Below are positions 26 to 51,158 of a DNA stretch of 64,000 nt, one piece after another. The notes under the pieces are model-generated. The model did not search any database, was not told the origin of the DNA, and saw nothing but the letters and a program-made list of their open reading frames with translations. Source of the stretch: Candidatus Omnitrophota bacterium (GTDB lineage Bacteria > Omnitrophota > Gorgyraeia > Zapsychrales > Zapsychraceae); the NCBI GenBank assembly GCA_021108075.1, contig JAIORP010000120.1, forward strand, positions 21,557 through 85,556, given 5' to 3'. The position numbers and the translations under genes were made by a program. The first letter of the stretch is position 1. Each line of letters starts with the position of its first letter.

Positions 26-450
26 ATGCTAACATCCTCCATGGTATTTGAAGGGCTTGCGCTTATTGTCCTGGGATATGTTGCCTGGCGAGTGGCCTGT
101 CTAGCGGTCAGAATGATTTGGAGTATTGGTGCGATGATCAAAGATCAATTCGGCGCCAAGGGCCAATATATCATCGAGCGTGAGGGAGGCAGGGCCCGTA
201 AGACGAATAGAGGAGCGACCGCCATATCGATCATATTATTTATAAGCGGTTTTGTTTTCTTTTTTGAATCTGCCTGGGGATGGGTTGCCCATCAATCCGA
301 TATGTTGTCGCGGGAACTTCCATCGACCGGTATTGATATCATGAGCGTGTCACCTGTTCAAGCAGCATGGCTGATGATTGCGGCTTTCGGTCTGGTTGCC
401 GCGGGTCTCTTGATATGTCTCTTTAAACGTCAACGGGCTGACCAGCGATT
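26..450 (+). other. N-terminal hydrophobic segment with about 3-4 predicted TM helices
   Basis: Hydrophobic stretches LALIVLGYVAWRVACLAV, AISIILFISGFVFFF and AAWLMIAAFGLVAAGLLICLF, followed by basic KRQR. Confidence 0.5.
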
Positions 451-3400
451 GTTGCCGCGCATCTTTTATAATAACGGAGAACCAACCGTTTTCTTCGCGT
501 CTGTCCGTGGATTGATCAGGAAATTTTTCCGCCCATCATTCAGCGATATTTTATCAGCGTATTTCAAAGATCAACCGGCCTTGAACGTGCTTGGCCTTGG
601 TGTTGGACAGGCGCATTTTGAACTCGGTCTCCGTCGACGGTTGGAACAAGCAGGTTATCACGTCAATCTGATGGGTGTTGATCACAATATGGACGCAAAA
701 GTCTTAAATCAGAAAAATCTGAAGGTCCCCGCGCAAAGAGATGAAGACGTGGTTGCTGTTCTTGGAGAACACTCACAGGATATTGTGGTTGTCAAAGCGC
801 CGGAATCCGGGCATATCCGTGAAGCCCTGGAAATGGCCTATCGATTGGTCAAAGACGGCGGATTAATTCTGACATCGATGTACGATTATCCTCGGGACCG
901 GATGTCTGTGAAGGTTTTAAGTGTGGAATCGCTTAATGGTTTTATATCATCAAAAATTGATCACTTTGCGCAGCAGAATGCAACAACACTTCAATTACAG
1001 GCGCTGGATTATCAGCCGTTGTTCACACCGAAGGGCGGGGATCCGGTATCCTATCCTATTTTTATCCAGGTGAGGAAGTCACGCGACAGGGAATATCAAA
1101 CAATGCAAATGAATCAATTTACGATGAAGCATATCACCTTCCTACTCCGTGAAGTGTTTGACCGCGGCGTCGGGGTCGTGATGTTATCTGTATGCTCACC
1201 ATTGATGCTTTTAATTGCCGTATTTATTAAATTGTTCCAGGGCGACGGGATTATGTTTATGCAAAAACGGATGGGCACAAACCGTGAGTTTGTGATGTAT
1301 AAATTCCGCACGATGACAACTGAGTTTGACCCGATTGAGAGATCGGAAACAACATTAGGGCGTATTCTTCGCCCCACACGTCTTGATGAACTGCCGCAAC
1401 TCTGGAATTTGGTTAATGGTGATATAGGTATTATTGGGCCGAGGCCGTTACCGCTCCGCCTTATCACGAAGGTTGGTCATCAAGCCTATAGAGCGAGCGG
1501 ATTAGCGCGACGCAAGAAGGGACTGATTGATGGATTAACGATGAATTTTATTTTACATGAACTCGTTAAACATTTGTCACAGAGCCGAATAACAGTCATT
1601 CAAGCATGGGCCAAACAACGGATCCAGAAATATTTTAGGAAATATTTGAATTATATCCGGGAGCAGCCAGACAAACAATTCATCTTTGAAGTGAACATGC
1701 TGTCCATTTTTGAGAAAACCCCGGTTGATTTCGAAAGCGTCAGCCAAAGCATTTTATTTAATAACCGTGAACACAATGACCGGGAGCCCATACGTAAGAA
1801 GTCGGCGATCCGTCTGTATTTACCGAAAGATTTTGAGAAACGATTTGCCCGGGTGAATACGGCAACCGCCCTTAATTTGATCCGTGATTTAGCCCGTCAA
1901 CCGCAAGGCCATGAAAGCGGAAGCTGGGTCCAACTGTCTGACCAGGAACAATTGGCCTTGATGGTGAAGGCTCTGGCTGCATCGCTGTGGCGCGATGATG
2001 TGACTGAACTTGCGCTCGCCCTGGAGGTCTTTGTCAAGTACGCGGATAACCTCCTGTATGATTTATGCGAAGACGCGACGGATTTGATTAAATCCTTCCT
2101 TAAAGTTTATCAAAAACGAGAAATTTTAAGATTTATACATTCTTCCTTCGGGGAGCAATTGCCACATGAATGGGTCGGATTTTTACGGGATGTGATTACT
2201 TATGTCTCGCTGCTGGAAAGTCAAGACGGGTATACTTATGGCCATGACACGCGTGTGGCGGAACTAAGCCTGGCTATCGCGCGAAAGATGCAAGCTAACG
2301 GACAAGCGCAATTTGATGCCGCGGCCTTACGCGATCTGTTCCTCGCTGGACTTCTGCATGACCTGGGCAAATTATTGGTACCGCTACCCGTTCTGAACAA
2401 GACAAAGCCGCGCACGCAAGCGGATGTCAGTATTTTCCACTTGCATCCGGAATGGGCCTTACAGTTGATCGATCTACCACCCGCGGCCAGCAGCGTCGGC
2501 GCCGGCGTTCTGTATCACCATATTTATCACAACCTGAAGAACGGGTACCCTCTTGACAGACTTTACGGCCAACCGTTGCCATTAAGCGCGCAAATCATCG
2601 CGGCTGCGGATACCTTCGACGCGCTCCATACAGACAGGACATACCGCAAAGGCGTTTCTGAACAGCAAGCCCTTGAGACAATGCACCCGTTGAAAGGCTC
2701 ACAATTATTGACAACAGCCGTCGAGGCTCTTGAGCAGCTGCACAAGGATAATCAGTTATCTTCTTATTATCACAATGGGCATGAACACAACCGCGCTTAC
2801 ATTTTATTGATCAAGTTGGTTAAGGATGCCAATGGTTTCAGCGCGAAGAAGGACACAAAAGATAAGGGTCAACCCGCCCGTTCAACCAGGTTCCCTCCGT
2901 ACATGCACTTAAAAGCTGAAGACCGGGAGATCATCAAAAAGATTAAACCAAAAACACAGATGATCCCCGGGGCCCGTCAAGGAGGACCCGCATTCTACTT
3001 GCCGCACTTCAATATCCCTGTTTATATTATTACACCGATTTATCCTTACCATATTAAGAAATTAGAAGAAGCCGTTGAGTGGATTGTGAAGAGCGGGTGG
3101 TTAACGTCTTATCCTGAAACCATGAAGTCCACAAATTGTATTTATATGGCCTATGATGAAACCGACCGGGCTGCGGGCGAAGCATATGATAACGGCGCGA
3201 CGTATGTTTACGTGAACGATTTTATGAAACAGTATGCCAGTTTCACCGCGGGAATCCTGATTCACGAAGATATTCATCATCAAAACAACCGGTTAACACC
3301 TTATTGGGACCGCTTAGATTTACCGGACAGTATTTTGAAGTACTATCCGAGGATCAGGCACGATTGGATGAAAGAAAGCTTCCGTATGCCGTCAGGCCTG

Positions 3401-6400
3401 TTGCATGAGTTGATTTCTTATTCGTATGAAATTCAATTTTTAAAACGCTTGTTGAGGCATAGTTTGGTTATGTCAAAGGCCGAGAGACAAAGCATTATGT
3501 CTATCATTCGGCATCGGAATGCAAAGAGCAAACACGTCTTAAAAATTTTATATTACCGCCGTCCGTTGATGAACACCGAAGGGGTGCAGATCTATTGGGA
3601 TTGTTGTTCGACCTGGCAGGACATTGATCAGTTTGTGAGCCGGAGGAGTCAACCGCGCAGTGTCGTTCCTACTCCGCGGCCAGTTTCAAGTAACCAGCAA
3701 GCTGATATGTTGAAATGGCTCGAGAGGAGAAAGCTCAAGCGTAAAGAAAAAGCTGATATCTGGGGATCATTCTATTTTGGCCTCCGGTATATTCATCGCG
3801 GCGGATCTGGCCTGATCAGACAAGCCGGGGCGATTTATCAAGCCTTTGTTACGGAATATGGATTTGCGCGCGGAACAATGCGCGCGTTCACGCATGCTAT
3901 CGCCACACCACACCATAAAGATCCGGCCTTTGCGCAATTACCGGATATCTTTAGATGGGCGATTGACGCGCATGAACAAGCCCATCACGCCGGGCTCAAT
4001 GAAAAGGCTGCTTACCTGGTTAATATCCAACCCTTGAGATCGGCACATGACCGCCATCCATTGAAAATATTCCGATTCTTAACCGTTATGAGCCTGAGAG
4101 CGAAACAGGTATTTATTTTGATGGTCATATTTGTCTATCTCTTTATCAATATTGTTTTCCCGGTTGACGCGGGGCAGGAAGCGGATAAGAACCTACCAGA
4201 TTCAGCAGGGGTTAAACTGCCGGTAAGAGTTGAAAGCCATGGGTTGTCCCATTGGTTGGATCAATTAGAACGGGTCGATCGGCATGTCACCATACCGCTT
4301 TCCGCGTTAGGACAGATGCGGGATTATCGGGCGGTTCCCCTTATCATAAAAAGATACGAGAAAGCGAAATCAACGGATGCGAAAGTCAAGATTATTTGGA
4401 CATTAAGACATTTTGATACGGAAGAGGTTGTTGCTTTCTTAACAGGGTTATATGTTCAGTATGGATTAGGATACCGGTTGCAACAGGCAGTTGAATCATC
4501 CCTGATCGAACTCAAACACATCGCGGTTCCTTATATCATAGACTTGATCGAGAAGTCAAATAAAAGATTACCCGGAGAGGTAAAGCTTCTTACGTTTGTC
4601 TCCGAACATGGTAGCGACCTGGCCGACGCATCCAAATCCGATCAGTCCGTCAGCCGTTTAAAGGCGAAGGTCAAACAAGGTCCGACATCTTCATTGTGGC
4701 AAGAAGGCCGGGTTGTTTCAGCCGCTAACAGTCTACTGGAAATGAGAACGCAAGATTATTCTAAGTTAAAGGCCCGATCAAAGATCAAAATATTGATGGA
4801 AAGAAGAGGAGCCTCTGGCCGGTATTTAACAAATTTGTGGGCGCAGACAAAGTCTTTAGACCAGCAGAAAAAGATTATTATTTTGTGGGGGGAGATCCGA
4901 TATATTTATGCTGTTCAAATTCTGAAAGATATTCAAGTCGGGGGAGCGCGGGAGTTACGCGCGTTAGCCGATAAATCGCTTCATCAGTTGGATGCTGAGA
5001 TCGAGCGCATTATCAGAAAAGAAAAAGAAAAACGCTGGATTATGTCTCAAGATAACAACCTTGTTTTCTTGGCTAAATATCATTTGGATATGCTCGTCAA
5101 ATATTTATCCGCGGATTATGAGGATTTTCATTTTGTTCTTTACAATGTCTTCGGTCAAGCTGGAAATAGCGAATCTGTGCCATGTCTCGTAGAAGGGCTT
5201 AACTCTGATGTCAGAAAAAATAGAGACGCGGCGGTTAAAAATTTGGGCCGGATCGGTGATCCCCTCGCGGTTCCGGCCCTCATTGACGTCATGAGAGATG
5301 GAAGTGTCATAACCGCATCGCTGGCATTATTAGAGGTAGACGACATTTATGGCATCATCGCGTCCTATGGTTACCGGGATAATGAATTGGTCCTGTATTT
5401 ATTGTCACCGATGCGAGAAGAGGTCCGGGTTCAATTGATCAAAGCCTTAAGAGATGAGGACAAGCGCATACAATGGGGCGCCTTAAAACTTATCCGTCAT
5501 TTCGGTGGAGTGGATCCGCAGGAATTAATTGATGTTTACACCCAATATGATTCTAAAGCGGGCCGCTTGATGGCAGAGATATTATCAGAGCAGGCAAAAG
5601 AAGAAGCGGTCAAGAAAATCCAGAGGAAGATCGAATCCACCATCGATGAAGATTTTAAACGGGTGAAAGAAGCGTATCTTCCACTGTTAAAGGATTTGGA
5701 CTCGAACGCCCATAGCCAGGCCAAATGGCATGTGTTCTGGAATTATTATTTGCCATTAGTCAGGGATAAAGCCATCATCTTGATCCTGCATTTGATACCG
5801 ATAACGATCCTGTTTATCCTTCTGAATCGATGGTTTAGAAGACAGAAAAGGGCTGATATCTGGGGATCATTCTATTTTGGCCTCCGGTATATTCACCGCG
5901 GCGGATCTGGCCTGATCAGACAAGCCGGGGCGATTTATCAAGCCTTTGTTACGGAATATGGATTTGCGCGCGGAACAATGCGCGCGTTCACGCATGCTAT
6001 CGCCACGCCAAATGACAAAGATTTGGCATTTAAGCATCTGCCGGAAACGATTAAACGGGGGATTGACGCGCATGAACAAGCTCATCGCGAAGGGCTCAAT
6101 GAAAAGGCCGCTTACCGCATCAATATCCAGTATTTCAGGGTTAAAGACCGTGTCGAGGCCATGATTGAAGACGTGATGGTTGACCGCGACCAATTGAGCC
6201 TGTTCATTCGAGAAATGTTAAGACGGTTTACGTTCGCGGAACATTTTGTTGACTTTTTGATCCGCCATAAAGAAGGTGTTCAGGTGGTTGCCCTTAAGGT
6301 GCATGACTTCAAGAATCAATTCATCGGACGCGGGGAAGAATTAGGCGTCGGACATAAACTCGGATCCATTGCCCTGTCGAACGTTATCGCTCGCCATCTT

Positions 6401-9400
6401 AGAGACGCCATCAATAAATACCTGAAAGACAATAATTTCCGCAGGATTGTTAAGGACAATGTTTTTAACGAAGGGGATACCTTCTTTGTCGTGATCGGAT
6501 ATACGCGTGCTACCCGTGAGAACCAATCGTTTGATATTGAGACGATGATACAGTATATTCTCAGGTCATCGTCTTTCCGCAGTAAAGTTGTTAAAGGTGT
6601 GAAGAAACGCTCCGGCATCGCCAGGAAATTAGACGATTTTACCGAGAAAGATTTTCATATGTATGGCGGTATTTCTAAATTATATGAAGGTTCGTTAAGC
6701 CAGGAAGATATGGGTACGGTCCTGAGCGTCGCGGACCGTCTGCAAATGCAAGCCATGCGCACAGCGAATATGATCCACCTTAAGTACACAAGTTACTATG
6801 CCGATTTCCTCGAAGAAATGAAAACCTTGCTGGCACGGACAGATTTAACGGAACAGGAAATGTTGGACCGCCGTGAATTGTTGTACCGAAGACTGAATAA
6901 GCTCATCCTGAGACAAAAAGTCAGCCGGGTCCAATTGTTTTCGACGATTATAGCAAAAGAAATTAAGAGAGCGCAAGGCGCAGGATTGACGAAGAAGATT
7001 AATCATTTTGACACAGTTACAGAACTTTATCCAGATGATAAGGTCTCCACTATTGACATCAAGGTTGCATTATGGGAAGCCATTCAAGCAAAAGACATTC
7101 ATGAAACAAGGACCCAGTTGAGGAAATTGATCAACCGCCGCATCATCTACCGCAGTAACCGTATTCCAGGAAGAGACAATATCTTCACCGGGTACACCAA
7201 TATCCGCCGTTTCATTAACTATCTTATTCGACGGCGTCCGAGTGAAAGTTTTGACATGGTTTATCGTCTTGGACGACAATCTGATGAATACGCTGTTCTG
7301 CTTTGGGATGCACTTAACCAAAAATTAGCTGTGTTCCGGTTTGACGCGATGAATGTCTCGACCATTGCCAATTATTATAGCCGGGCGGCGGCCAGTGAAA
7401 TGTTGGACGAAATGAGTTTAGCGATCAAACATGTTGTCAAAGAATCAGCCAAAGACCATAGAACTTTAGCAGCGCGATTAATTTATATCCGCAAGAATTT
7501 ACACCGTCACATCGGTGAACGATTTAAAGATAAACCTTATTATGCCACACCGGCTGTTTATGATGTTTTCTTTGAAGAAATGACGATCTGGCGAAAGCAA
7601 AAAATTTATCTATTGGTCAAAGGGACAAATACGTCCTATTCCATGAAATTTAAGAATGGATGTCCGGAAATACGCCATTCAAACGGTTCGCTGGTAAGGT
7701 GGAATAACCTTCCGTTCACATACAAACACATAAACGGTGATCAGGCAAAGATCAAATTATTAGAAATAAATAAATACGCGTTGTTGAGGATAAAACCAGA
7801 GGTTTATCAACGGCTCCAAAAAACAGGGCGCGTCTATAATGATGATGAAATGATAAACGGAACAGTTGTGATTCCGACCATTCCAATTCTGCCAGGGGGA
7901 TATTTGATTGTTGATGTCGCCGCTATCAGACAGGATGACCTGATGAAAGATTTTGGTGACTTGCAATGGTATGCCGATAGCATGGCCGAATGGATAAAGA
8001 ATCATGTGATTAGACCACACCAGATTATGGGCCGGATCATAAGGCCGCGGATGACAATATCGGAATGGCGCAATGATATTAAAAGTGATATTGCTCAATT
8101 AAAAGAGTATCATCCCACACCGTATAAAGTTTTAGTCGCGGAGATGATGTTGCAGCGCGTTCTGAAAGAAAAAGAACAAAGCGAAGAGAGGAAAAAAGAA
8201 GAGCGGGAGGACACATTAAGAGACGAGATAGATTCGGATACAGGTTATCAAACATCTGCGTTCGGTTCGTTTGTCTTTGGCAGCGTCATGACCGTGCCGG
8301 TTCTCTTCGGCGTGAAGCTCGCCGTAGTGCTGTCTCTATCAAGTCCGGCGCTTGGTGTTCTGACCGGACTTGTCAGTCTCGTCGCGGCTTTTGTCGCGGC
8401 GCATTATTTCAGAGAGTTTATTGAAATTGCTTTAGCCACGTTGCTCGTCAAGTTCGGACGCATACGCGGCCCGGATGCGGTCAGACAGAATTTGGCCGAA
8501 GAGTGGCGTACGGCTGTTGAACATGGCCGTGCGGTTGTGACTCCGACACTTAAACAACCGGCTCAGAAACGAAAGACAGAAAATGTCATCCGCGTAAACC
8601 CTCAAATTTTATCGCGCTTATCGGTGAGTGTTCAACAGGCGATTTACCGTCATGAGATGCTGCACCTTAATGGTCAGGGAGAAATAAGCGCCTATTTGCA
8701 ACAAAATTTAATCATAGACAATGTTTGGAAGGGCATCCGTTTAGTTGTTTCAAACAAGAAATACCCCGTGATCCAGCAACTCTTTAAGAATGTGACAGAG
8801 GCGGACTCAGGGGCAGTTGATGATCGGCATCACGGTAAAGGCCGGATTCCAGCATTGGCCCATGTCTTAGTCGCGTGGCTTTATTGGTTGACGCGAAGAG
8901 TTCATAAATCGAACTTACCTGTCGCCTACGAAAAAGCATTACGGGTGGCCAAGGCCATCCAGCCATTGATCGAACAGGTTCTTTTCTGGAAGATTTCATT
9001 GCTGCTCATGGGGCTTATCAATATTCCGATCGGGATCCTGATCACGTGGGGTCTTTTCTATGGTCTGCACTTTTTCGAAACAAAGGATTGGAAAAAGCCT
9101 TCTTCTTTCCAGATATTGTGGGTTTCTGTTGTGAATGTCCTTGCCCAGGATATCCTGGTCTTGATGCCTCTTGACCAGGTTGCGTTGTTTAATATTTTCA
9201 GTTTGAGTGCCCATCCATACGCTTATGCTGCGTTTGCGGCGGTACTTATTTATCACTATATTTACGAATACGGTTTTATCTATGTGTTCCGCCGTATATG
9301 GGGCCACCGGGTGAAAGTTCGATTACGTAAAGAATATGCGGAAAAGGGCCGATACGTCGGTGAATTTGAAGTTAAATACCGGTTTGGCCGGCCAAATTTA

Positions 9401-12400
9401 TTCGCTGATATTCTTTATCCCGCGAAAGCCTATAATGCCCACGTCTATGTTCCACAAAGAATAGTTAAGGAAGGATATAAAATTTATCGAGGGCGTATCA
9501 CGACCCATTCAAAACAAAAGCTGCATGACACGATTGACCGTATGCGGCGCGTCTCTGATATCTACATACCAAGATTCAAAGGGGTCCAATGGACGATTGC
9601 GGTTGATATCGATGATAAGGTCGGAAGTTTGTATGAACTCACACACCTATTAGGCCGTCACAATATTTTAATATCAGGTTTTCTCCCGCCGCAAATAAAT
9701 GAGCAACAGAAAAACGTCTGCCTGTTCCTCGAACTCGATGTGCCTAAACGAATCGGCAGTTATACGTCTTTGACAAAACTCATGCAAGAGAAATATCCTG
9801 AATTCGGAAAGGATGAAGACAGGCCGCCTATTCAGGGATCATTGTTTGAGAAGAAATTGAGTGAATTGATGGAAAACATCGGCATACGTCTATCCCTCCG
9901 GGAAGTGGACCTCTGGTTAAAGGCCTTATCGGTTAATAACCGTTATCTCTGTCGAGCCCGTAAAAATGAGCACGATGCTTACGTGGATCATTTTTTGAGG
10001 GTCGTTGAAATTTTAGTTTTGAAATTTGGCGTTAAGGACAAACAGGTCCTCCTGGCGGCCTTGTTGCATGACAGCGTTGAAGATGACGTCCTTACCCCAG
10101 AGGAACTGCGTCAATTATTTGGTGATGAGATCCATGATATCGTTATGCTGCTGTCTAAACGTCAACCTAAAATGGTTTATATTGATGAGAAGATGTACTT
10201 GTTAAATATGGTCAACGCGCTTGAATCGAACCGCAGCATTGCGTCAAAGGCGATCCTTATCAAATTAGCCGACCGCGTGCATAACATGCGAACATTAGAC
10301 ACCAAAGATGAAAATTTTCACCGCCGGTATTATTTCTCAACGATGGATACCTTTGTGAATGAGTTTGTCTTCGAGGTTATTAAGGCTTATGAACAGCAGC
10401 GTTTATCGGTACCAGAAAGCTATCCGATAAGCCGGGGTGTAAACTTGCTGGCCAAGCAAGTGTTGAAAACAGGTCGTCTGCTGTCCATCGTGACCTCTTC
10501 TAAAAAGATTCGTGTGGATGAGCTGTTTACTTATTTATCTAAGTTAGAAGAACCGATTGTCAAGGAGATGCTCAGGAAATTTAAAGTAGGAGAAAAAGTC
10601 GTGTCTGATATGGATTCAGAGGCGCTGGCCGTCTACCTGTATATGCTGTATCGACGGACAGTGTCAGGGAAATATAGTGATAATTATGAAGAAATTGTTA
10701 GCGTGGTCGCGATGTATACGGAAATTTACAAAGAGTTGGAACGCATGTCCGCGTTGAAATACCGACCATTGCGTTTGTTTGGGTATGATGAGGGTTCAGC
10801 GGGATCAGATCGAACGGGAACATCCGCATTGGCCTTCCCGAGACCAAATTGTTTTCTGGTGGAATTGTCCCGTCTAGGTATTGATGTGCTGAACTTAAAC
10901 GATAATATACCGGATAACAAGAAAGCTGTCTTTGACGATCAGATCATTATTTCTGCCCCGGAACTCATCTCTGTTATGGAATGTCTGCTTACGAGCGGCG
11001 AGCAATTTGATATTGATCATAATATCTATGTCTGTTCTCAGCTAACATACACGGTAAAAAATGACAGGATTCGAGAAGTCTGGCACGCGATATCCCATCG
11101 AGAATATCGTCAATTAGGACCTTTAGAGAAGAACAGCTATTTGCCATTTAAAGACTTTTTGAAATTAAACGTAGCTGATGTCTGGTTAGGCGCGCGCCGA
11201 AAAATGATTGAAGAAGACGAAGAGCTCCCAGGGCGTAAAGGTGTCAGCATGACGTTTATTACGAAATCTTTAAAAGAATTAGCGGACTATTGGCAAAAAC
11301 TAAAAGACATTTATCCTGGCGTGTCCATTTTTGGTTCATCACGGGTTCCTTCACCGGTCGCTAAAGAACTCGCTAAAAGACTTTCAGATCTGCTGTATGC
11401 CATCATTTCCGGCGGCGGTCCCGCGGCAATGTCCTCGGCTAATGAAGGTGGCCGTTTGGGTCGTCGAGGGGTTTCAGTTGGCCTGGCCTTACAATTACCG
11501 TTTGAAGAAGAAATCAATAAATATATTAATGAACCTTTCTATTTTGAATATTTCTTTACTCGACTCCTGGCATTCTTAACATTGAGTGTGGCCTTTATCC
11601 ATGTGAAAGGTGGTATTGGAACCCTTGATGAATTCTTTACCGTCGCAGCGATGAAAGATCTTGGTATTATTTCTGAAGAAACACCGATTATCCTCGTGGA
11701 CAAAAAATTGTATGGTCCGTTAGATAAATTGTTGAAGCAATGGGATGAACTGGGGTATACGCGCCTGAAATCAGATCAAATTTACTCCCTGTACGGTAAT
11801 AAAGACGTGGATGCCATTATCCATGAAGTCATTTTCGCTTTTGAAAGGTTAACACAGGACGATATCCTTAGGTTGAAGAAAAAACAAGTCCGCCGCGACT
11901 TGCTCAGGATAAACCGTCATCTCAGGAGACTCGGACCCACCGTCGGTATTGTGGGCGCGCATCGCGGTGTCGGTCCGCAAAATTATAATTACGAGATGGC
12001 TGAACAGATCAGCACAGCTTTAGCAGAATTGGATTTATCCATCCTGCGCGTCTCTGAGACCGGTATCGGAGACGCGGTCCAGCAAGGTTTTCTGCGGGCC
12101 AAAAAAGAAGCCCGTCAGGAAGGAAAGATGTTTACCGCGCGGGATTGTTTGATCGGAACAAAAGATGATATAAACGGCAATGGTCATCCGATTGATAAGG
12201 TCTTGCGCCTGTCGCATGATTCGTTAAAGAAAGTGATTTTTAGTTATGGTTACAGTGATATCCTGCTGGCCTTCCCTGGCGGTTATTCAACGATGGAAAT
12301 TATTACGGAGATCGCCACCCTTATTAATACGGGAAAGATGAATCCGGCGCGTCCGATTATTCTTTTTAACAGCAAATACTGGGCGCCATGGATGGATTTC

Positions 12401-36400: not shown

Positions 36401-39400
36401 AAACCTTTTACTTTGACGTATTCCTGGATTAAACAGGTGTTGGCATATTACGTCTCCATCAATAAAACAATACAGGCGCAGCAACTAACCGCGATGGTTA
36501 AACAGGGATTTGTCCGTGCCGGCCCATTGAAATATTCAAGAGGTTTCGCTTTCGGGGATTATATTGTTATTGCCGATGAAGATGTTTGCAATCCAGGTGC
36601 TCTTCTCGTCAGCTTGTCGAATGGTGCACGGCTTTCCGTTCTCAATCATCGGACACGTTTATACTTTGGCATATACCAGTTCACTCAAAGATTGCGGCAA
36701 TATCCTGTCCGGCTCCGTGACCGCCGCAAATTAAATCAAGCCGGATTAATCAAGTTTGCCGGAAGACATAATAAAATCCTTCCGGAGAAGTTGAGCAAGT
36801 CGTATCACGAATTAACCGGAATATACATCGGATTAAAAGGCCTGTCAGAAACGCTTAAATATTTCGGTATCGCTTCAGGCGTAAGCGGGGCGTTATGCGG
36901 CCAGGTCTGGCTGGGCGTCCTTGTCTTTCTGTTAGGCCTGTTTGCCGGTGGTTTAACGCGTATGAGTGTCACTTTAGTCCTTAAAGTAACGCGCTACCGG
37001 GATATCCCGCTGCGACGGTTATTCTATCCACCGGCGCTATTGCCCTATTTTGGTTTCCCGTATTGTCTGCTTGTCTTATCAACACCCAGGTATACGCTCA
37101 GAGAACTGCTGGCGTTAAGAAATATTTATTACAAAGTCAAATGGGGGCTCGTTAAAGCGGTTAAAGATGGTGATGTCACAGATGGACAAATGCAGGTTAT
37201 TCGCGGATCCTTACTGGAAGTTTCCCGGGATATTCTTGATTATCAACGAACGCATTTAACCCTCCGTCAAGGATATCGCGGAAGAGCGGAACGTAGGATG
37301 CGTATCAGATATCCAAAATTCAGTTCAAAGACAGAACCGTATATGTTCACAGCCCTGCTTAAAGGACGTCCGTTCTTATTTGTCGGTTCAAGCGCTGGCA
37401 TCGAAAGGACGAGGAAAAAGGTGCAGCAAAGATTCGGCTTGAAGTATCAGCCGAAAATATATTACTACGATATCAGTCAAGTTTTGAATGTTTCCAACGG
37501 TGATGCCTGGCCAGAAACTTTTGTTAAACCGTTAATGGCTGATACAGAGGAACGTTCCCCTCAAACGGTGGTGCATATGGAACCGCGAAAGAAAGATGCC
37601 CCTCAGCCACGCATGACCGAAAGTCGAGTTAAGTTGGTCTATCAAAATGTGCATGGAAAAGTAATCGCTTGGGTTATTAATAAGAAAGGATTATTTGTTC
37701 TAAGGGAACAAATATTTGAAGGGGTTCTGGAAAAACAAATCTTCATCGGTATTTATCACGTTTCAGCAGATGATGGAGCAGAAAGTCGTGTCGGGGAGCG
37801 TAAGTATGTTATCCGGGAGGATAAAATTATTGCCGGAGCTTCAGGAGATTATGATTTCCATATTGACCCGTCCTACAGATCTCTTGGTCTGGGAGTTGTG
37901 GTTTTGACCCACGTATTTAAACAAGCGGTGGCCCATCAAACAGATATGATGATAATTCATTTTCCGGAATACCGTATCCAACAGACATTGCAGCGGGTAT
38001 ATGGTTTTGGTCAGGAACGGTTTAAACCGGGTATAGGCCGTTTTATCGAGAAAACTCATTTGCGGCAGCAAGCCGACGAATTTGTCTGGCTCGTAGAGGA
38101 TCATTTAGCGCGGCGTCAAAAGGAAAAAGCGTTTCAGTCCCGGTTCATAACAGCGTTTCAAAAGGGCGCTGAACCAATTGAGGTTATTTTAGAGAAGAAA
38201 GATCTCTCGGCTGATTCCATTCATTCTCAGGCAGGTTTAAGCCGGGCAGGTCGAATCAAAGAAATTTTATCGCGTAACTGCGTCTATCAGGCAGTAACGG
38301 TTAAAGAACGGAGATTATTGGTTCAGGCCATTGAGGCTTCCTCCCGGGAGGACAGAGCGCTGTTAAGGGTTGCGCCGCATCCGGTATCCGGTCAGGCAAA
38401 AGTCTGGTTAGATGCGTCCTTTGCCAGAAATTTTGTTCAGCAGAAGATGAAATATCCTATTTATGTTGAAAACATCAAACCAGGGTATTGGCATGCCATC
38501 AAAGAATACCGGCCAGGATCTGTTCCCATCTTCGATCCAGCAGTGACGGGTTGGATAGGTGCTAAGTTAAAGAACCGGGAGAAAGCTCAAATTCTTATGC
38601 AAGAGATTGAATCTTTATTTGCGCAAAAGCAAAAGAATGTTTCATCCGCTCGTCGATTTTTTATTCGCCAACGCGTTAAATCGCTACAGGCCCGGGTCAG
38701 GCGGTTTAAGAAAGACAAGAAATATGCGACGTTGATTTCTGATTTAGAACAATGCAAAGTTGATATGGCAAGCCCGTGCGACTGGAACAAATCATGGGAT
38801 CTCGCGATCCGCCAACAAAAAAGCAAGAAGCAAAGAGTTCAGACATCAGGATTTTTAAAGGAAAAAGTGTTTGGCCTGATGCGTCGGCGACACAAAAAGG
38901 GCGCACCGGATGAGGTCCTGGATGTTGACTCAATTGAAGAGGTACAGGAAGTAGAGTCGGAACAGCCAGAAACTGTTGCCGCGCAATCAGCAGATCTTCG
39001 ATGGAAGCCAACACGTCCAACGTATACCGGACGAGAAATCCGGAAATTTTCGCGCATAACAATCAATCAGAGAACAAAATTTATCAGCGATTTAGAGCGT
39101 GTCCGGCTTCGAGTAAACGGATTCGCGCGAGAACAATTGACCGATAAGACAAAAGCAGCGTTCACTCGGGATATTAAGGCCTTATCCGATAAGATTCATG
39201 CGGGTAACGGGGAAAGCGCGTCTTTCTTCCGAAGAGAAATCAAAAAGATTCAAGCCGTTCTTGATCAGGTCGATGTCCAGGAGATGAAAGATGCTGAAGG
39301 AGTGATAAAGGACAAGAACGGCAAGAATAAAAAGAGTGACGGCCAGTTCATGCCAGCAGAAGGGGATCAAAGCGCTCAAGCGGATATGGTTGGTACGATG

Positions 39401-42400
39401 ATATTGATGCTTGCTATAGATTTGAATCTCGACTTAACACAGCCCGCGCTTTTTACTCGTTTGAAACGGATTTATGAGAAGATGCCGGAAGCCATCGATA
39501 CGTTAGTAACCTCTAAGAAATCATCAGTGCCAGAACACAAAGAACAGTTGAAAATATTAGTGAGCCGAGATGCAACCGATTTTGACATTGAAGAGCGGCT
39601 CAACATTGTCGATCAGATCGCAAACCCTTCTATTGCTTTTGAGGTCACGCTGTCTGAACTCAACAATGATCAAATTGATAACATCATCCGTTATGCACGT
39701 TTAAACCGTTCTGTCAAGCAGGATAAGGTTGAGGTGAACATGGCGGACTTCTTCAATGGACCTGACGGTAAGATTGAGGAACGTATAAAAGAAAGGATTT
39801 CCCGGGAGGCGTATAACCTCAGTAATGCTGATCAGCTCAAAAATAATTTAAGAAACGTTGAGGACGTTATCGACGAACTAGAAGGATTAAAGCAATTGAT
39901 TCAAAAAACGCTGGATCAGTTTCCTCAGCATGAAATTAAAAACTTCACGATTACGAACCGCACAAGCAATGATATCTGCATCAGAATTAATGATGAAAAG
40001 ATTTTAAATGAATTAAGGATCGGGACCCTGATCACGTGTGATGACCATCAGGGCCGATGGACGTTAGCCATTCGGGATATTAACGATGGCCATATCCGGT
40101 GTGCTTCTACTAAAAGTTTACGATTATTAGTCCCTCGAACCGTCAGGATGACGTTTAAAGCTCAGACCTCGGCAGAGGATCAGAATATCAAGGTTTTAAT
40201 CAAGTTATTAAGGCAGTTGAGAAAGCAAGGTTATACGGGCGTCGAGGCTGTTGATTGGGCCTTACGTTTACGCATCCCGCCAAGATCGATCCAAAGTCTG
40301 CAGGAGTTAAAAGCGGCAAAGGGGCTAACAACAAAAATGGCCGGCTTAGATGAATTTCAACGCGCCGCTGTTTATTTAATGGCAAAAACGCGGTTTGGGT
40401 TTGTCCATGGTCCGGCTGCGAGCGGAAAAACACGGGTGATCAGGGCCGGGGTCGCGACACTCATCCATCAATTTAAGCGTTTCATTTTCACGGCAGCTTA
40501 TCAAAATGTCAATGTCGATGACTTAACAACAAAGATCGGACAGGATAAAAGTATCCCGGTTGTGCGTCTTGGACATCCCACGAGTATCGCCCCGGATGTT
40601 TATGATGCGTATGCCTATAAAAATAAAGAGGCCTGGAACCGGTTTAAAAATAAATATGATGATCTTAATACGTTCCAAGACGAATGTGGCGCGACGTTAA
40701 CGATGACCTTAATGGGTGGGGCTTATGATGAATCATTGCAGAAATTTTTAATATATCGGGCGAAAAATCCAAATGACGCGCGTTTCAAGAAGTTAACGCT
40801 TATCATCGATGAAGCCGCCATTATTAGTTATGTTGATATGCTTGTCGCCTTGTATTTGATCAATCCTTATGCGGTTATTTTTGTCGGTGATTATGTTCAA
40901 ACCCGTCCATTACCCTTTGATGCTGAATATCAAGATGTTATCCCGCAAAAGCATATCGCTCAAATCATTGAACAACAGGCAAAGGACGTTCGCCGCTATG
41001 AAAAGAGCCTGTTCGAAGATTTAGCGGATGAGCCGTATGACCGTGTCCGTTTGTTACGCAATTATCGTAACCATTGGGCGCATGTTGATTTGATGCAGCC
41101 GTTTTATTCCTTCCCATTGCTCAGCGCCAGCCGGGAAAGAGGGGACCCATTAGAAGAAGACACCGTTGTTATTCTCGATACCGCTCAACCGGGCGTCCTG
41201 GACGAATGGCTTGATCAAAAAGGATTAACATGTTTAGATTTTACGACCAGTCGAACGGCAATTCATCAAGGTCATCAAAGTTATGCCCTTGCAGGAGAGG
41301 CCCGTTGGTCGGTCGGAAAAATCATGCGGTATGTTTTGGCACGTCAAAACCAGGAATCCGCTTTTGACGCAAAGGATTATTTATTCATCAGCCCATATTG
41401 CGGCCAGGTTAAAGAGATCAGCCGGCAAATAAGGACGATGAGTCGTCTGCACGGGTTAGCCTTGTGGCAGCAGCAAGCTTTATTACAGCGCGTGTTAACA
41501 GCACGTTTAGCACAAGGGTTAGAAGCCCTGGATGTTGTGATTTCTTTTGGACGGGCAACAGCTCCGAATAAAAGAAATGTCCGGGCGGGAGCAAATGGTT
41601 TTGCCCGTATGAATTTGCCTTTGGTCGCTGATCCTCATGCTTTACTTGTGATGCTCTCACGCGCCCGAAAACGTCTTTTTGTGATCGGTCATCGTCCGAC
41701 GCTGGAGTTTCTCAGCCGGAAGGGATCTGATCCGCAGATGTATAGCAGGCTCTTTAACTACAAACCGATGCCTCGCCGGCAACATCAAGATGATGGCTGG
41801 TTCTGTGCTATGTCAACACCTGTTTTCCAACCGGCTGTGACTGAACCGATCAACGATGAGGCAGCCCAATTAATATCAAAGGGCATTTTCTTGGAATTGA
41901 AACGTAAAATTTCAGAAGGCATGTTCAATCAAGAAGAGAATATCCGCTGTCAATCGAAGGCCTATTCGCATGACCGCATTTCATATTATCGTCTCGAAGA
42001 AACAGACGGGAAGCTGCGTCATGTCATGGATACGGTTTATATGCGCGTCGGACATTTATTTGTCATGAATGCAGATATTTGGAAGGTGCTAACACCAATC
42101 ATGCAAGACGCGATTCGAACAAATGTGATTATTGTTCCAAGTATTAACGCCTTATCCTTATCCCGCAATAATTATTTTTATTACACTATTTCTACGATCG
42201 TTGCCATGATGCAGACGGATTTAAGAGGAAAAAGAGTGATTGATGCCGGCGCAGCAGAAGGCTTACTTGGGCTGGTGGCTTTGAAATTAGGCGCCCACTC
42301 GGTTGATTTGATCGAATATGACCGGCGCTTATTAGAAGGAGCTCAAGGTATTTTATCACTGAACGGTTACCAACCCGATATTCATTACCGTATCCATTGG

Positions 42401-45400
42401 ACCAGTCTCGTCCATACGTATTTTTTATCATTGCGTTTGAATCAGACTGATTTGCCGAGCGTACTCATTTCCAATATCGGCCCGTGGGCTTGGACAGGGG
42501 ATGTATCCAATAAGGATTCCATTGATTTATTGGCGGCGTTGAAGAATGTTCAAACATTTATTGCCAGCGGCTATGACTGGGATCATACCACGATGATTGG
42601 AGCAGACCATGAATACATCCGTCCACTCGGTTTCAAAGAATTAGACTTTGTTCAATGTCAGCTCGGGCACAAGGAATTGCTGACCTGGATGGTTAGCAAG
42701 ACAGAACCGAGCTCTGTTAAGAACGAAGAATATTTCAAATATATTAAAGATTGCGACTTGGACAATCTTCTGACGGCCAGCAATGTCTACCGGTATTTAG
42801 AGGAAGAGATTGATCCATCATTGGCCGTAGTCCTCCGTTTTGCTGCAGACAAGATAACCGGCGCTGAGTTGATGACGCAGATCGTCTTTATCCCGTCCGA
42901 TGGTTTATTCAAGGAAAGAGTGCTGTTGCGCAGCGCGTTTCTCCAAAAGCATTTGCCACTTGCGGTCCAAGGACAATTGTTCATTGAACCAACGGTCAAT
43001 TATCATATGTTGGCACATGCAAACCATTCCAAAGCGCTGTCCTTAGCTGACGCTGATCCAAATATTTTGATAGGTCCTCGTCAGGAAGAAGATTTAATCA
43101 GTGATTATCCTGAAGAGAGTTTAGCTCCGTATTGGACGTGGCTCGCTCCTGTCGCGCGCGCCTCGGTTGAATCGAAATTCCATCACGCCTTACGACCGAT
43201 TATCCCACTGATGTTAAGTGTATTGCAATACGTGAAAGTCCCTGGAGCGAAGCGATTAGCAAAGATCGGGATGGAAACATATCGTGTGAACAAAGAATTT
43301 TTCAGGGAGCATCCTTATTTACGTGGTCCACCTTGGATCCGGGCCTTATTTCAGCCTGTTGCCAGAGGGTTTGACCACGATAATGCCATCTGTTGGCAAT
43401 TGCCGTATCCGTACATTAAGAAAATCAAACATTCTTCACGGTTTTTCATTGAGGTTCATGAACGTCAAATATTCGACATTGAAGTCCCCAAACAATTCAG
43501 ACGCCGTGTCTTGTCACAGATCGCGGCTGCCGTCCTGCGTTTTATCGGCGAGATTAAAGCCTGGGTTTATTACTTCAGGAATTACAAATCCTTGCTCAAA
43601 CAATATGTTCATAAAGAAGAAAAGAGATCAACAGTTGTTGACCGGTTTATTTTAGACTTTAAACCATTGACAGACATGACGCCACAAGAACAATTGTTGT
43701 ATGCCCGGGCGAATACGGAAGCACGTGTTAAGCGCAAGGAAACATGGATGCGGGAAAACGCCCAGGAGGTTCAGCGCCGAGACGGTGAGACTCTTATGGC
43801 CTGGGTCAAACGTGTGTTGTATGACTTGAACTGTGAAGTGAGTGAAGCGGACTTGGACATTGTTGAAATATCAGACCAGAAACTTGTGACGTCAAACTGT
43901 AACAACTGTCCGATCCTTGACGCTTGTGAGAATCTGGGACTTGATACACACTTCGTCTGTAAAGAAATTATGCATAAACCATTTGCCCGTTTGGTGGAAC
44001 TCATGGACCCGCGCCTGACATTTGACCGGGATTATGTCTATGGGTTACGACCGCAAGCTTTGAGCTGTATTGAGATTATAACGATTGATGAAAGCAAAAA
44101 AGACAACAATCACAACGGCCGTCCTAATAATGGTCAACATACCCGGGTGATTAACCGCAAAGACATTCTTCCTTTACTTTTTGGGAATTGTTTATTGAAG
44201 GGGCTTTTGGACTTGGAAGCCTATGTCCAACTGGATAATATTTATAAACATATTTTTACTTATGATGGTCCTGAAAAAATCATAAAGATCATTACGGATG
44301 ATCACGGGCAAGAACGGCTTTTGGTCAAGAAGGATTATATCCAGAGATTCATCCCCGAGGACATAAGAGATAAGCTGATGATCAAACCAACCGCTTATGG
44401 ATATCATGTCCGAGTCGTTGATGATGTTCCTGCCTACGAGCAGGAAGACTATCAAGCGTTCAGGTTGATGCCCGATGGAATATTTCTGGGGATAGATGAT
44501 GCATCAGAAAACACGAATGAGTCAGAGGCGCCTGCGGCACCGCTGAATGTTGTTGGTCCAGAGGGTCCTCCGGACGATGAAGACGATGACCGGATTCCTT
44601 GGTGGTGGTTTTTGTTAGCTTTCATCATGTGGGGGCTATTACTTCGCAAGCATATTTTTCAGGAACAAGACTTTACAAATCCAGATCCATTATTGAAAAG
44701 AGTTGAAACCGTATATTATCGCGCACCGCTGTTAGAGCCGAGGCCAAGGAATCCAAGATTAAGGTTTATCGACGGCATATTCAAGAAGTACGCACCTGTT
44801 GTTGATCCGACCCCTGCAAAATGGCCATTCCCGGCAGATAAAGAAAGGTTTCCGGAGACCGTAATTCCGGGGCATATCCTTTCGGACGTGCGTATCCGCA
44901 AGATGCCCCCCAGGATCCTCGTCCAGCCGTATACGGTCTTTCCAATGCTGTATATTCAGCGGGAGGTCGATCAAATGGGTCTGCCGCAGTTTGGGCCAAT
45001 GCCCCCGAATACTTTTATTGATGTCCGTCCTTATAATTTTGATTTCTTTTTCTTATTCGTGAAACTCATGGCGATCGGGTATGGCAGTTATTCTGTTGTC
45101 ATATTAGGGTCCATCATGATGATTTTTTTGCCAAGAAGTTGGATGGACTTATCACCGGTTTTTCTTGTTATTGAGTTTGCGACAGCTTGGCGGAGGAAGA
45201 TACAAAATGTGATCAGACCGCTTACGTCTGCACGCTATCAAAGACCGGATTATCGGTCATTGTGGAACCATGTTTTTGGAAATATGTATTTAATGACTAA
45301 AAAATTTCTTATGTCGAGATCCCTGACCGAAGATATGAAGAATCAGCGGTTGATCAAAACAACCTCTGACGGAGGTCGGGATGTGTCTGACAATGTTCCT

Positions 45401-46675: not shown

Positions 46676-46708
46676 TGGTCCGAGGGGGAAAAGAGGTGCT
46701 GAAAGTGT

Positions 46709-46748
46709 CGATTCTCTAGTTCATATCAGGGAATCGGCATTTTTTTTC
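46709..46748 (+). terminator. Weak candidate intrinsic terminator after the giant gene
   Basis: Short imperfect stem CGATTC...GAATCG followed by GCATTTTTTTT. The loop is long, so this is weak. Confidence 0.2.
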
Positions 46749-46855
46749 AACGCATTTGAAGTCCCATCAGAGGCAGTGATAAAAGACATTGATTGGATCT
46801 TACTGGTTGACAGGTTTGGTGTAAAGATCCCCTACCGGTGATGAACATCAACGCG

Positions 46856-47332
46856 TTAATGCGCCGTTTTTTTTTGGTCAGGCAGGTTTTTATAAATAAT
46901 GATGAGGAGTACGATGATAAATAGTAGTCCAAAAACGAGAATGTAAAAATATTCTATCGAGTGTTCCACATATCCGATGATGTCTTTTCTGCCGGGCTGA
47001 TAGTTATCTAAATAATGATTATAATCCCCTTTTGTGGAAACCAGATCTCCATCGACAGAAACCACCCTGTGGACAAGGATCTTTTTTTTCAGCGGGTTAT
47101 AGAAGGCAATGGGTCTGCCGATGAGATTGTTTAAGTCATCGCCCCATCTGTTATTAATAAGCACGAGACTATTTTTTGGAATATAAGGGGCCATCGAATT
47201 GCTTGTGACCATAAAGATCGGGGTAGATGTGTTTTTCCAATGGCACCATCCTAGTATGGCGAGTGTTATAAAGAGAAATAAAAGAATGGCCGCGATAAGA
47301 ACGATCTTTGCCGTTGTATGTGTTTTTTTCAT
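46856..47332 (-). CDS. Signal peptidase I, SipW/eukaryotic-type (S26B): N-terminal TM, catalytic core and C-terminal TM
   Basis: Box-B-like TSNSMAPYIPKNSLVLI (Ser nucleophile), HRVV box, N-terminal TM IVLIAAILLFLFITLAILGW and C-terminal TM ILVFGLLFIIVLLIII. Confidence 0.65.
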   Translation of the reverse strand: MKKTHTTAKIVLIAAILLFLFITLAILGWCHWKNTSTPIFMVTSNSMAPYIPKNSLVLINNRWGDDLNNLIGRPIAFYNPLKKKILVHRVVSVDGDLVSTKGDYNHYLDNYQPGRKDIIGYVEHSIEYFYILVFGLLFIIVLLIIIYKNLPDQKKTAH

Positions 47333-47485
47333 GGTGAGGTGTGAACCCCTTTCTTATGACGCTTGAAAAGGCATCAGATAACATGCCTGTTGCCTTAGAA
47401 TAATGCTTGATGCAGCTTTTTATATGACGTGTTTATCATAGGTAAGGCTTTGTCGTTTTACAAGAATAAAAGTAAAAATATCCTC

Positions 47486-47525
47486 TTGACAAAGAGTGTA
47501 TTAGTGTATTATACTTCTAATACAC
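47486..47525 (+). promoter_or_regulatory. Putative sigma-70 promoter overlapped by a GntR-type operator palindrome, upstream of the gntR-ABC operon
   Basis: TTGACA at 47486-47491, an 18 nt spacer and TATACT at 47510-47515. Inverted repeat GTGTATTAG (47496-47504) / CTAATACAC (47517-47525). RBS AAGGA at 47537-47541. Confidence 0.4.
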
Positions 47526-47550
47526 ATGATGCAAAAAAGGATAATTGATC

Positions 47551-47955
47551 ATGACAGCTGAATCAAAATATTATTTTCATATTCTCACATCTTCAGGGGT
47601 ACCGATTTATCGACAAATCATTGATCAGGTCAAGATGCACATTGCCACAGGGCGATTACCCCAGGACACGTTTTTGCCCTCCGTTCGCCATGTCGCGCAA
47701 GAATTAGAAATTAACCCCATGACCGTTTCCAAGGCCTACTCTATATTAGAACGTGAAGGAGTTTTAGAATCCGTGCGGGGAAAGGGGATGCGTATTAAAG
47801 CCACCCGGCAATCCAATAAAGACCTTAAGCGCAAAGAGGATAGCATTAAGCCGTTATTGAAACAAGTGATCAGCAGAGCTCAACAGCTTTCTTTGGATAT
47901 GAAGAAGGTAACAGCGATATTTCATTCTTTATGGGAGGAAGAAAATCATGAATGA
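47551..47955 (+). CDS. GntR-family transcriptional regulator, short YtrA-like subfamily
   Basis: N-terminal wHTH LPSVRHVAQELEINPMTVSKAYSILEREGVLESVRGKGMRIKA and a short C-terminus. ATG at 47551 is preferred over the TTG at 47545 in the ORF track. The end overlaps the next gene. Confidence 0.8.
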   Translation: MTAESKYYFHILTSSGVPIYRQIIDQVKMHIATGRLPQDTFLPSVRHVAQELEINPMTVSKAYSILEREGVLESVRGKGMRIKATRQSNKDLKRKEDSIKPLLKQVISRAQQLSLDMKKVTAIFHSLWEEENHE

Positions 47956-50211: not shown

Positions 50212-50273
50212 AGACGTGTTGAGTGCTGTTGCAGGCACTTAGCATGAGACTCAGAAGAAGGGAGGTGAATACG

Positions 50274-50504: not shown

Positions 50505-50755
50505 TGAGACCGGCAATATTATAGATGGCGCCATCTATAACATCGTTTTGCGCTTGATGGAGAGTGTTTTTGACTGTCATTTGTAACATGAGAACGATTG
50601 GTTTGTATTGTTATTTTAGCAGTATGGTTATGGCCTGTTTCCGCGGGGGAGAATTTGTCGAACGGCCTGGCTTGTACCGGTTTTATTTATAGGTTTAATT
50701 CGGGGGAATGAATGATTTATCTTTTATTTTATGTATAAGAAATTAGAAGGATGAT

Positions 50756-51148: not shown

Positions 51149-51158
51149 ACGATATTTT

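Follow-up and report, generated by a model that had tools for sequence, protein, structure and literature searches.

A Single Giant Gene in an Omnitrophota Contig

The stretch of DNA analyzed here, referred to as the window, comprises 64,000 nucleotides (nt) of contig JAIORP010000120.1 (assembly GCA_021108075.1, positions 21,557 to 85,556) from a Candidatus Omnitrophota bacterium. The open frame, the coding signal and the mapping to longer contigs assign nt 2–46675 of its + strand to the 3′ end of one giant gene, 46.67 kb with 15,557 codons and a closing TGA. This is very probably a real single gene of the giant-protein class already known from Omnitrophota. Combined with the proposal that its product would be a membrane-tethered cytoplasmic scaffold, it forms the explanation that we favor, and we regard the combination as reasonably probable. 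The scaffold mechanism, taken by itself, is offered tentatively.

Frame +2 stays open from nt 2 until the TGA at 46673–46675, a run of 15,557 codons. The first ATG of this frame lies at nt 26 and gives 15,549 amino acids (aa), exactly the minimum length named in the original prediction, which had described a single stop-free gene from inspection of the sequence. With these base frequencies, stops should appear at intervals of about 16 codons (p = 0.0616), and the chance of the whole run is about 10^-430. Across this region, the longest open runs in the remaining five frames measured 98–280 codons, with the antisense maximum at 280 codons. Codon-usage log-odds, trained on six flanking genes and scored per 1.5-kb block, were above zero in the giant's frame in all blocks except 27.0–28.5 kb (-0.06) and the last one, which crosses the stop. 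The other two + frames were clearly negative throughout, and the antisense frames mostly scored lower, coming near or slightly above the giant's frame within 25.5–28.5 kb. The open frame and the coding signal in that same frame bear out the claim of one gene. The signal was weakest at 21–28.5 kb, a purine-rich segment encoding E/K/G-rich protein. Over window 20000–30000, the coding strand is purine-rich (GC skew 0.27–0.42, AT skew 0.12–0.19) with a lower G+C content at third codon positions, and the stretch is compositionally unlike the rest of the gene.

Since TGA, TAA and TAG all terminate flanking genes, the standard code applies and no recoding is needed. Hidden internal cistrons were considered and rejected: a Shine-Dalgarno motif precedes 5 of the 367 in-frame ATGs (1.4%), compared with 2.5% and 1.2% in the other frames, and such ATGs are not enriched. 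We found no Rfam family or tRNA in the window, and no convincing intrinsic terminator 3′ of the giant's stop codon. Tandem Repeats Finder reported 0 arrays, and self-BLAST returned few dispersed internal duplications only. The protein is thus mostly non-repetitive, in agreement with the earlier description of a non-repetitive mosaic that mixes enzymatic and regulatory modules with hydrophobic segments.

The gene continues beyond the 5′ edge of the window, as had been suspected. The flanking MutS, ABC and MSEP-CTERM proteins matched exactly the NCBI proteins of a Candidatus Omnitrophota metagenome-assembled genome (MAG; locus tags K8S27_*, neighboring proteins MCD4780659–670). The ABC-ATPase and MutS neighbors were present residue for residue on both NODE_24 of ENA assembly ERZ26872899 (100,871 bp) and the NCBI contig (100,940 bp), and a locus taken from the ENA contig (L001) was 100% identical to window 37948–58826. 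On ERZ26872899 NODE_24, the giant gene is called at 22,742 aa. In record coordinates its stop falls at 32,641, and its first codon, at 100,869, lies 2 nt away from the edge of the contig. Since the call extends to this edge, the gene is 5′-truncated and 68.2 kb (22,742 aa) is its minimum length. The window holds the 3′ two-thirds of the gene or less. As the same frame runs at least 21.56 kb further upstream on the contig, the ATG at nt 26 is internal and not the start. In addition, the Logan assembly of a separate run (SRR32473238) contains a 25-kb contig with the gene's last 5,937 aa, which is 100% identical over window 37948–54132.

Enzymatic and Regulatory Modules

Amino acid numbering in this section and below starts at nt 2, and all features of the giant gene lie on the + strand. 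About 14 distinct families are solid, with Pfam, NCBIfam or PDB support, and the commonest is Lysine_decarbox/SLOG, which forms three tandem modules. The more than 25 catalytic and regulatory domains of the original prediction are reached only if repeated and weak modules are counted. Together, the modules listed here account for about 37% of the residues; the solid family hits by themselves account for about 20%.

The first tandem-LOG module (nt 11246–12529, aa 3749–4176) consists of a SLOG cluster 4 domain and a LOG domain (LOG 5zi9, 4e-25). The second (nt 17273–18688, aa 5758–6229) is the most divergent, and the third (nt 33026–34486, aa 11009–11495) is about 47–50% identical to the first; both were recognized by Pfam/PDB sequence matches. 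The LOG/SLOG family is defined by the motifs GGGxGxM and PGGxGTxxE on a Rossmann fold. The motif GGGP(A/G)xM was found in all three N-terminal LOG domains and KGGxGTL(D/N)E in modules 1 and 3, and the TIGR00730 score (107 bits) exceeded the cutoff of 96. The second LOG domain of every tandem module is degenerate.

Several further enzymes were identified. A phosphoglycosyl transferase of the Bac_transf (PglC/WbaP-like) type occupies nt 1082–1477 (aa 361–492), with a re-entrant helix at aa 389–409 (PF02397, 3e-27; PglC 8g1n_A, 3.8e-14; TIGR03025, 1.7e-32). It is followed by an HD-GYP phosphodiesterase domain at nt 2138–2755 (aa 713–918) with HD, HHxxH and GYP motifs (HD_5, 3.5e-21; cGAMP phosphodiesterase 5z7c, 3.7e-9). 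A RelA/SpoT/Mesh1-type HD hydrolase with an intact H...HDxxED signature lies at nt 9887–10525 (aa 3296–3508; HD_4, 1.9e-13; TIGR00691; PDB), and a NUDIX hydrolase domain with an intact NUDIX box at nt 32099–32473 (aa 10700–10824; PF00293, 6e-12). An Upf1-like superfamily 1 (SF1) helicase core (AAA_11 plus AAA_12), whose Walker A motif reads GPAASGKT, spans nt 40346–41695 (aa 13449–13898). The catalytic motifs are largely intact (NUDIX box, HD/HDxxED, HD-GYP, LOG, Walker A), and this conservation argues that the domains may be active enzymes.

The remaining matches are partial, weak or structural. The C-terminal half of a histidine-kinase-type ATPase (HATPase_c), with the G2 box GTGFGM, was detected at nt 20123–20422 (aa 6708–6807), and no H-box was found for it. 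HEAT repeats are clear at nt 5081–5680 (aa 1694–1893; HEAT_2, 1e-12; alphaRep in the PDB), and a second, weak HEAT match at nt 22445–22666 scored 22 bits against the Pfam cutoff of 27.7. Two weak methyltransferase-like segments with degenerate glycine loops are paralogous to each other, one a Rossmann segment (nt 29327–29722, aa ~9776–9907) and the other PrmA-like (nt 42026–42391, aa 14009–14130). An unannotated module of about 100–190 aa also occurs twice in the giant (aa 11466–11661 and 14392–14489; window ~34397–34984 and 43175–43468), as well as twice in an unrelated 4,631-aa protein (P0060).

Near the C-terminus, nt 43640–44092 encode a four-Cys domain of about 130–150 aa. When the last 1,200 aa were compared exhaustively by HMMER with 1.84 billion representatives, 118 hits were obtained, most of them at aa ~14,547–14,697. 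The conserved core (~130 aa) contains four invariant or near-invariant Cys residues in the pattern CPxLEAC...LGLDTRxVCK...FxRNY...RPY...YCEE. It is found mainly in small stand-alone proteins and is fused to tandem LOG in one protein (P0012) and to cytidine deaminase in another (P0017). The domain matched no Pfam family and no PDB sequence. Its model has a predicted fold of the Bet3/V4R/H-NOX-like kind, similar to Bet3/TRAPP and the V4R sensor domains of DmpR/CapR, and we regard the domain as a putative small-molecule or metal sensor. The chain ends in three to four repeats (nt 44306–46663, aa 14769–15554), each containing a hydrophobic segment and the motif IFLPR...RYQRPDYRSLW. This motif was found in one other protein only, of 344 aa and with the same ending (P0007), and the repeat profile had no match in JGI metagenomes.

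Predicted Membrane Topology and a Proposed Scaffold

Hydropathy and flanking charge (positive-inside rule), the only basis for the topology described here, gave about 13–16 credible hydrophobic transmembrane (TM) segments in 15.5k aa, mostly paired. Three segments at aa 14–36, 71–88 and 113–141 (nt 41–424) open the window's part of the protein. The chain would be cytoplasmic after aa 141, which places the phosphoglycosyl transferase and the HD-GYP domain inside and fits their chemistry. It would exit at the TM segment aa 1369–1388 and return at aa 1924–1942, and the charge bias predicts that the intervening loop of about 535 aa, which holds the HEAT repeats (nt 4106–5827), is extracytoplasmic. 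Two TM hairpins follow at aa 2747–2803 and 2998–3088 (nt 8240–9265), and another at aa 12287–12319 plus 12340–12362 (nt 36860–37087). As these later hydrophobic segments are all tight pairs, the LOG, HD, ATPase, sigma-like, NUDIX and helicase modules would stay on the cytoplasmic side. The nucleoside triphosphates (NTPs), S-adenosylmethionine (SAM) and nucleotides required as substrates by the recognized enzymes are cytoplasmic. This topology agrees with the HEAT repeats in predicted extracellular segments of Archaeovorins (bioRxiv 10.1101/2023.11.21.568195) and with the 46% of Omnitrophota giants that are "TM-only" with a cytoplasmic bulk (bioRxiv 10.64898/2026.06.07.730766).

Based on this arrangement, we propose that the polypeptide may be stitched into the inner membrane by its mostly paired hydrophobic segments, with nearly all of it on the cytoplasmic face and one HEAT loop of about 535 aa exposed outside. 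Such a scaffold would co-localize enzymes of nucleotide and second-messenger turnover on the cytoplasmic face. The HD-GYP domain would act on cyclic dinucleotides, the SpoT-like HD domain on (p)ppGpp-like alarmones, and the NUDIX and LOG domains in nucleotide hydrolysis. The same chain would carry the glycan-initiating transferase, sensor-type modules (the V4R-like domain and the histidine-kinase-type ATPase) and modules directed at nucleic acids (the SF1 helicase and the degenerate sigma-like module). A plausible site of action is the envelope or contact zone of a host-dependent, ultra-small bacterium.

Several points weigh against this account. About 60–80% of the protein is unannotated and nearly devoid of detectable homologues, so the picture is built on a minority of the residues, and a single-sequence model of aa 11,501–12,600 reached a pLDDT (predicted local distance difference test) of 37 and was discarded. 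Published TM predictors disagree on giant proteins of this kind (bioRxiv 10.1101/2023.11.21.568195). The 5′ part beyond the window, at least 7,185 aa, may carry a signal peptide, peptidases, or SecA-like or extracellular domains that would alter the interpretation. The evidence for a single gene comes from the assembled sequence. Moreover, no orthologue was found among 5.8 billion proteins or in metagenomes, the latter searched with the window's N-terminal 400 aa and the C-terminal repeat profile; the N-terminal 400 aa had no match in GTDB genomes or JGI metagenomes.

The Sigma-Like Module, the HExxH Modules and Possible Cleavage

A sigma-70-like module lies at nt 27638–28435 (aa 9213–9478; Sigma70_r3 and RpoD_Cterm). 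It aligns over regions 2–4 (RpoD_Cterm, 5e-15; SigA, 3e-13), and all scores are far under the NCBIfam cutoffs. The aromatic motif of region 2.3/2.4, YATWWIRQAI, reads YAVLCINGGML, and the recognition helix of region 4.2, RERIRQIE, reads LEKFNVIKFE. With both DNA-recognition motifs (-10 and -35) lost, we do not class the module as a functional promoter-recognition sigma factor. Part of the region 2.1/2.2 motif is still recognizable; in sigma-70 factors, this motif contacts the RNA polymerase core.

The window's protein contains six HExxH motifs against 0.63 expected, about a ten-fold excess. Three of them share the pattern HExxHxxGxxExxAY and adjoin TM segments. The first (nt 3719–4039, HExxH at aa 1324) lies on the cytoplasmic side just before the TM segment aa 1369–1388, and the second (nt 5819–6139, HExxH at aa 2024), 77% identical to it, comes right after the TM segment aa 1924–1942. 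The third (aa ~2850–2910, nt 8549–8731, HExxH at aa 2884) lies between the two TM hairpins. A different HE(L)xH module of about 200 aa is present in two adjacent copies at nt 25556–26749, with 98–99% nucleotide identity over about 450 nt, and self-comparison revealed a third copy at nt 28466–29134, directly after the sigma-like module. The three copies bracket the sigma-like module on both sides. One of the near-identical copies lacks the first His (RELWH). Against Pfam, the HExxH modules gave a marginal SprT-like match only (E = 0.06, for the third TM-adjoining module), and against PDB sequences nothing.

At the nucleotide level, the window contains two direct repeats of about 450 nt at 25629–26685, 98–99% identical and 606 nt apart, and comparison of the two sequences indicates a recent in-frame duplication. 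The repeats at 25.6–26.7 kb are the only site where a short-read assembly could mistake the copy number.

This distribution of motifs brings up a polyprotein, in which one chain would be cut by embedded or N-terminal peptidases into separate enzymes and regulators, with the sigma-like module, for example, being freed. The excess of HExxH motifs, the placement of three HExxHxxGxxExxAY copies beside TM segments with a marginal zincin match, and the 200-aa modules on both sides of the sigma-like module all point this way, and cleavage by N-terminal C39/S8 peptidases has been proposed for the class by West-Roberts 2023 (bioRxiv 10.1101/2023.11.21.568195). However, Pfam, NCBIfam and PDB sequence searches returned no significant peptidase family, one near-identical 200-aa copy has lost its first His, and the number of motifs is raised by duplication. 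C39/S8 domains have been reported at the N-terminus, which is outside the window. We therefore consider cleavage into a set of separate products unlikely, and retain the uncut scaffold as the preferred reading.

Flanking Genes and Distant Relatives

The 17 kb downstream of the giant gene encode GntR, ABC ATPase, exosortase-like, MSEP-CTERM, MutL, MutS and CheC-like proteins. Right after the giant, window 47545–50211 carries overlapping genes for a GntR-family regulator, an ABC ATPase and a protein of 462 aa that matched no family, a group that looks like a YtrA-type regulator-transporter operon. At window 51159–54816, an exosortase-like membrane protein of 205 aa (weak Exosortase_EpsH) is encoded directly upstream of a 1,004-aa MSEP-CTERM sorting-domain protein, which scored 419 bits with TIGR04286 and contains a VIT domain. 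These two genes are a protein-sorting pair near the giant gene, and no PEP-CTERM-like signal was found at the giant's C-terminus. Minus-strand open reading frames (ORFs) of 887 and 644 aa in the window are MutS and MutL, respectively. Past the window's 3′ end, on the same contig (L004, 1–5983), two unusually long genes encode a UDP-glucose pyrophosphorylase (UDPGP) domain protein of 1,897 aa and a PAS/HisKA/HATPase kinase of 1,130 aa.

Each third of the protein was searched against 5.8 billion proteins, a set in which the giant itself is not indexed. The first third returned one partial relative (P0001, 2,959 aa, partial), and the other two returned none. This relative contains one tandem-LOG copy and has no further similarity to the giant. 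With a tandem-LOG profile, the best match in GTDB genomes was JACRHP010000003.1 2–21214 from the Omnitrophota MAG NC_groundwater_1780 (L006), whose 21.2-kb locus is filled entirely by a single frame of more than 7,071 aa, open at both ends. This ORF resembles the present one in having two tandem-LOG copies (30–33% identity) and HEAT repeats. It differs by its DAO, isochorismatase and HAD domains, and no similarity was detectable outside the LOG modules. The tandem-LOG module also exists as a free-standing protein of 450–500 aa in Gammaproteobacteria, Patescibacteria and Actinomycetota. The giant is a mosaic of modules that are free-standing elsewhere, namely tandem LOG, four-Cys, NUDIX, HD, phosphoglycosyl transferase, sigma-like and SF1 helicase. 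As the modules are independent genes elsewhere, the giant looks like a fusion; giants appear to share the identity of their modules and not their order or sequence.

Other Explanations for the Giant Protein

A protein that lies mostly outside the cell as a predation or attachment coat, binding and degrading the envelope of a host or prey, would follow what has been proposed for Velamenicoccus archaeovorus and the Archaeovorins. The 39,678-aa protein of V. archaeovorus LiM was detected by proteomics (PMC10066038), and its peptide counts were raised in attached cells. Beyond this phylum precedent, the HEAT loop is predicted to be outside, the glycan-initiating transferase is present, and the domains overlap the Archaeovorin list. 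The recognizable content of the window's part of the protein does not suit a coat, although the phylum does. Glycoside hydrolase, lytic transglycosylase, dockerin, lectin and adhesin domains were not found in the 15,557 aa, the recognized enzymes all require cytoplasmic nucleotide or SAM substrates, and the hydrophobic segments are paired. The 17-kb downstream flank contains no type II secretion, pilus or glycoside hydrolase genes. An extracellular coat is thus rather improbable here, and the tethered cytoplasmic scaffold remains the reading that we prefer.

A more far-reaching version of the scaffold, which we regard as speculative and improbable, would make the protein an all-in-one membrane-tethered signaling hub instead of a predation coat. 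The HEAT loop, the V4R-like domain and the histidine-kinase-type ATPase would sense inputs and control the HD-GYP, SpoT-like HD, NUDIX and three tandem-LOG modules, and the flanking HExxH modules might proteolytically release the sigma-like module, which would then bind the RNA polymerase of the bacterium or its host. If this were true, one polypeptide would do the work of an entire regulatory network in a reduced genome.

A further reading takes the giant for a nucleotide-centered conflict or defense protein, an array of immune or effector domains, since SLOG/LOG, NUDIX, HD and SF1 helicase domains are characteristic of anti-phage and inter-cell conflict systems. In PADLOC, the NUDIX domain was similar to PDC-S07 (3.7e-8), the helicase to the C-terminal region of MkoA (3.2e-13) and a methyltransferase segment to mad2, and the V4R-like domain is fused to LOG or deaminase in other proteins. 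These are single-domain matches only, with no system architecture; the N-terminal 9,400 aa are without any PADLOC hit, and there are no neighboring defense genes. A defense function is very improbable.

Finally, an artefact, whether a chimeric assembly or adjacent genes merged through sequencing or assembly errors, is hardly credible: the contig comes from a short-read metagenome with a coverage of about 17x by its name, and the near-identical repeat pair could be collapsed or expanded, but a random mis-join or indel would be followed by a stop in the next 16 codons or so and the 15,557 codons contain none, a single frame carries a uniform coding signal, Shine-Dalgarno-led internal ATGs are not enriched, the 3′ 16 kb are identical in an independent assembly of another run, and the phylum's giant ORFs have been confirmed on circular long-read genomes.

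Comparison with Known Giant Proteins

The original prediction had regarded genes of this size as extremely rare in prokaryotes and the domain combination and topology of this one as apparently undescribed. Neither statement is supported for Omnitrophota. ORFs of more than 20 kb occur in most classes of the phylum (Seymour 2023, PMC10066038). West-Roberts 2023 described 46 genes of more than 90 kb, encoding up to 85,804 aa, and distinguished Archaeovorin and Dockerin types; frequent domains were HEAT_2, HATPase_c, NUDIX, Lysine_decarbox, HAD_2 and methyltransferase, together with many TM helices (bioRxiv 10.1101/2023.11.21.568195). Nielsen & Lui 2026 cataloged 5,761 proteins that reach 10,000 aa or more, the largest with 147,155 aa, and defined a "multi-enzyme" class as well as a signal-transduction module of methyltransferase, HATPase_c and HD. 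In their set, the "TM-only" topology with a cytoplasmic bulk accounts for 46% of cases, and 80% of sequence clusters are singletons (bioRxiv 10.64898/2026.06.07.730766). A multi-enzyme class, a TM-only topology and the same frequent domains had thus already been published, and the present ORF shows the features given for Omnitrophota giants, being longer than 20 kb, with few annotated domains and poorly conserved. Its sequence and domain order are unique, yet uniqueness is the rule in the class.

Other families of very large proteins share the size class only. Repetitive adhesins (RTX/Bap-like) differ by their tandem arrays and adhesin or Ig-like repeats, none of which are present here, and nonribosomal peptide synthetase/polyketide synthase (NRPS/PKS) megasynthases by condensation, adenylation, ketosynthase and carrier domains, which are likewise absent. 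The Dockerin type is defined by dockerin and TSP3 repeats, and neither PF00404 nor PF18884 matched in the window.

With the Archaeovorin type, the giant has in common an Omnitrophota host, many TM segments, HEAT repeats in a predicted extracellular segment, NUDIX, HATPase_c, Lysine_decarbox (LOG) and methyltransferase-like domains (weak here), few annotated domains and poor conservation. The window differs from that type by having no SecA_DEAD, glycoside hydrolase, GT1/GT5 glycosyltransferase, significant peptidase or TPR; PF07517 (SecA_DEAD) had no match at E <= 0.01 in its 15,557 aa, whereas divergent SecA_DEAD and SecA preprotein-binding domains mark the Archaeovorins. The helicase is an Upf1-like SF1 core and not SecA-like, the phosphoglycosyl transferase is not a GT1/GT5 enzyme, and the 17 kb downstream contain no type II secretion, pilus or carbohydrate-import genes. 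Archaeovorins are longer than 30,000 aa and have an N-terminal C39/S8 peptidase close to a signal peptide; the gene here is truncated at 22,742 aa by the end of the contig.

Giant genes make up several percent of small Omnitrophota genomes, and the prevailing functional proposal for them is prey adhesion and cell-wall degradation. The present example offers cytoplasm-type nucleotide and second-messenger enzymology on a predicted membrane tether, and neither carbohydrate-degrading nor adhesive domains were found in the 15,557 aa. This content adds weight to the functional heterogeneity of the class, a view already found in the 2026 catalog. What is known of the existence, size range and general architecture of such genes is unchanged by it. 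As experimental handles, the giant provides the recurrent tandem-LOG module, the four-Cys V4R-like family and the degenerate sigma-like module bracketed by HExxH repeats.

Compared with the multi-enzyme/TM-only class of Nielsen & Lui 2026, the giant lacks, in the window, the sugar-metabolism module of many giants (starch synthase, GT1, phosphoglucomutase), and its downstream flank lacks the secretion/pilus or GH2 genes that accompany 13 of the 14 largest loci in their set. Tandem LOG and HD-GYP both go unmentioned in the main text of that preprint, and the sigma-like module in the main text of either preprint. The phylum is the same, the length is at least 10,000 aa, and many Pfam families are present without a dominant one. 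The methyltransferase, HATPase_c and HD domains of their "module 1" recur here together with NUDIX and HEAT scaffolding, about 13–16 TM helices compare with their median of 16 at >=10,000 aa, the bulk is predicted to be cytoplasmic, and the sequence is unique, as are 80% of their clusters. The giant probably belongs with the "multi-enzyme" proteins of predicted "TM-only" topology of Nielsen & Lui 2026, and its domain repertoire resembles that of the "Archaeovorin" type of West-Roberts 2023.

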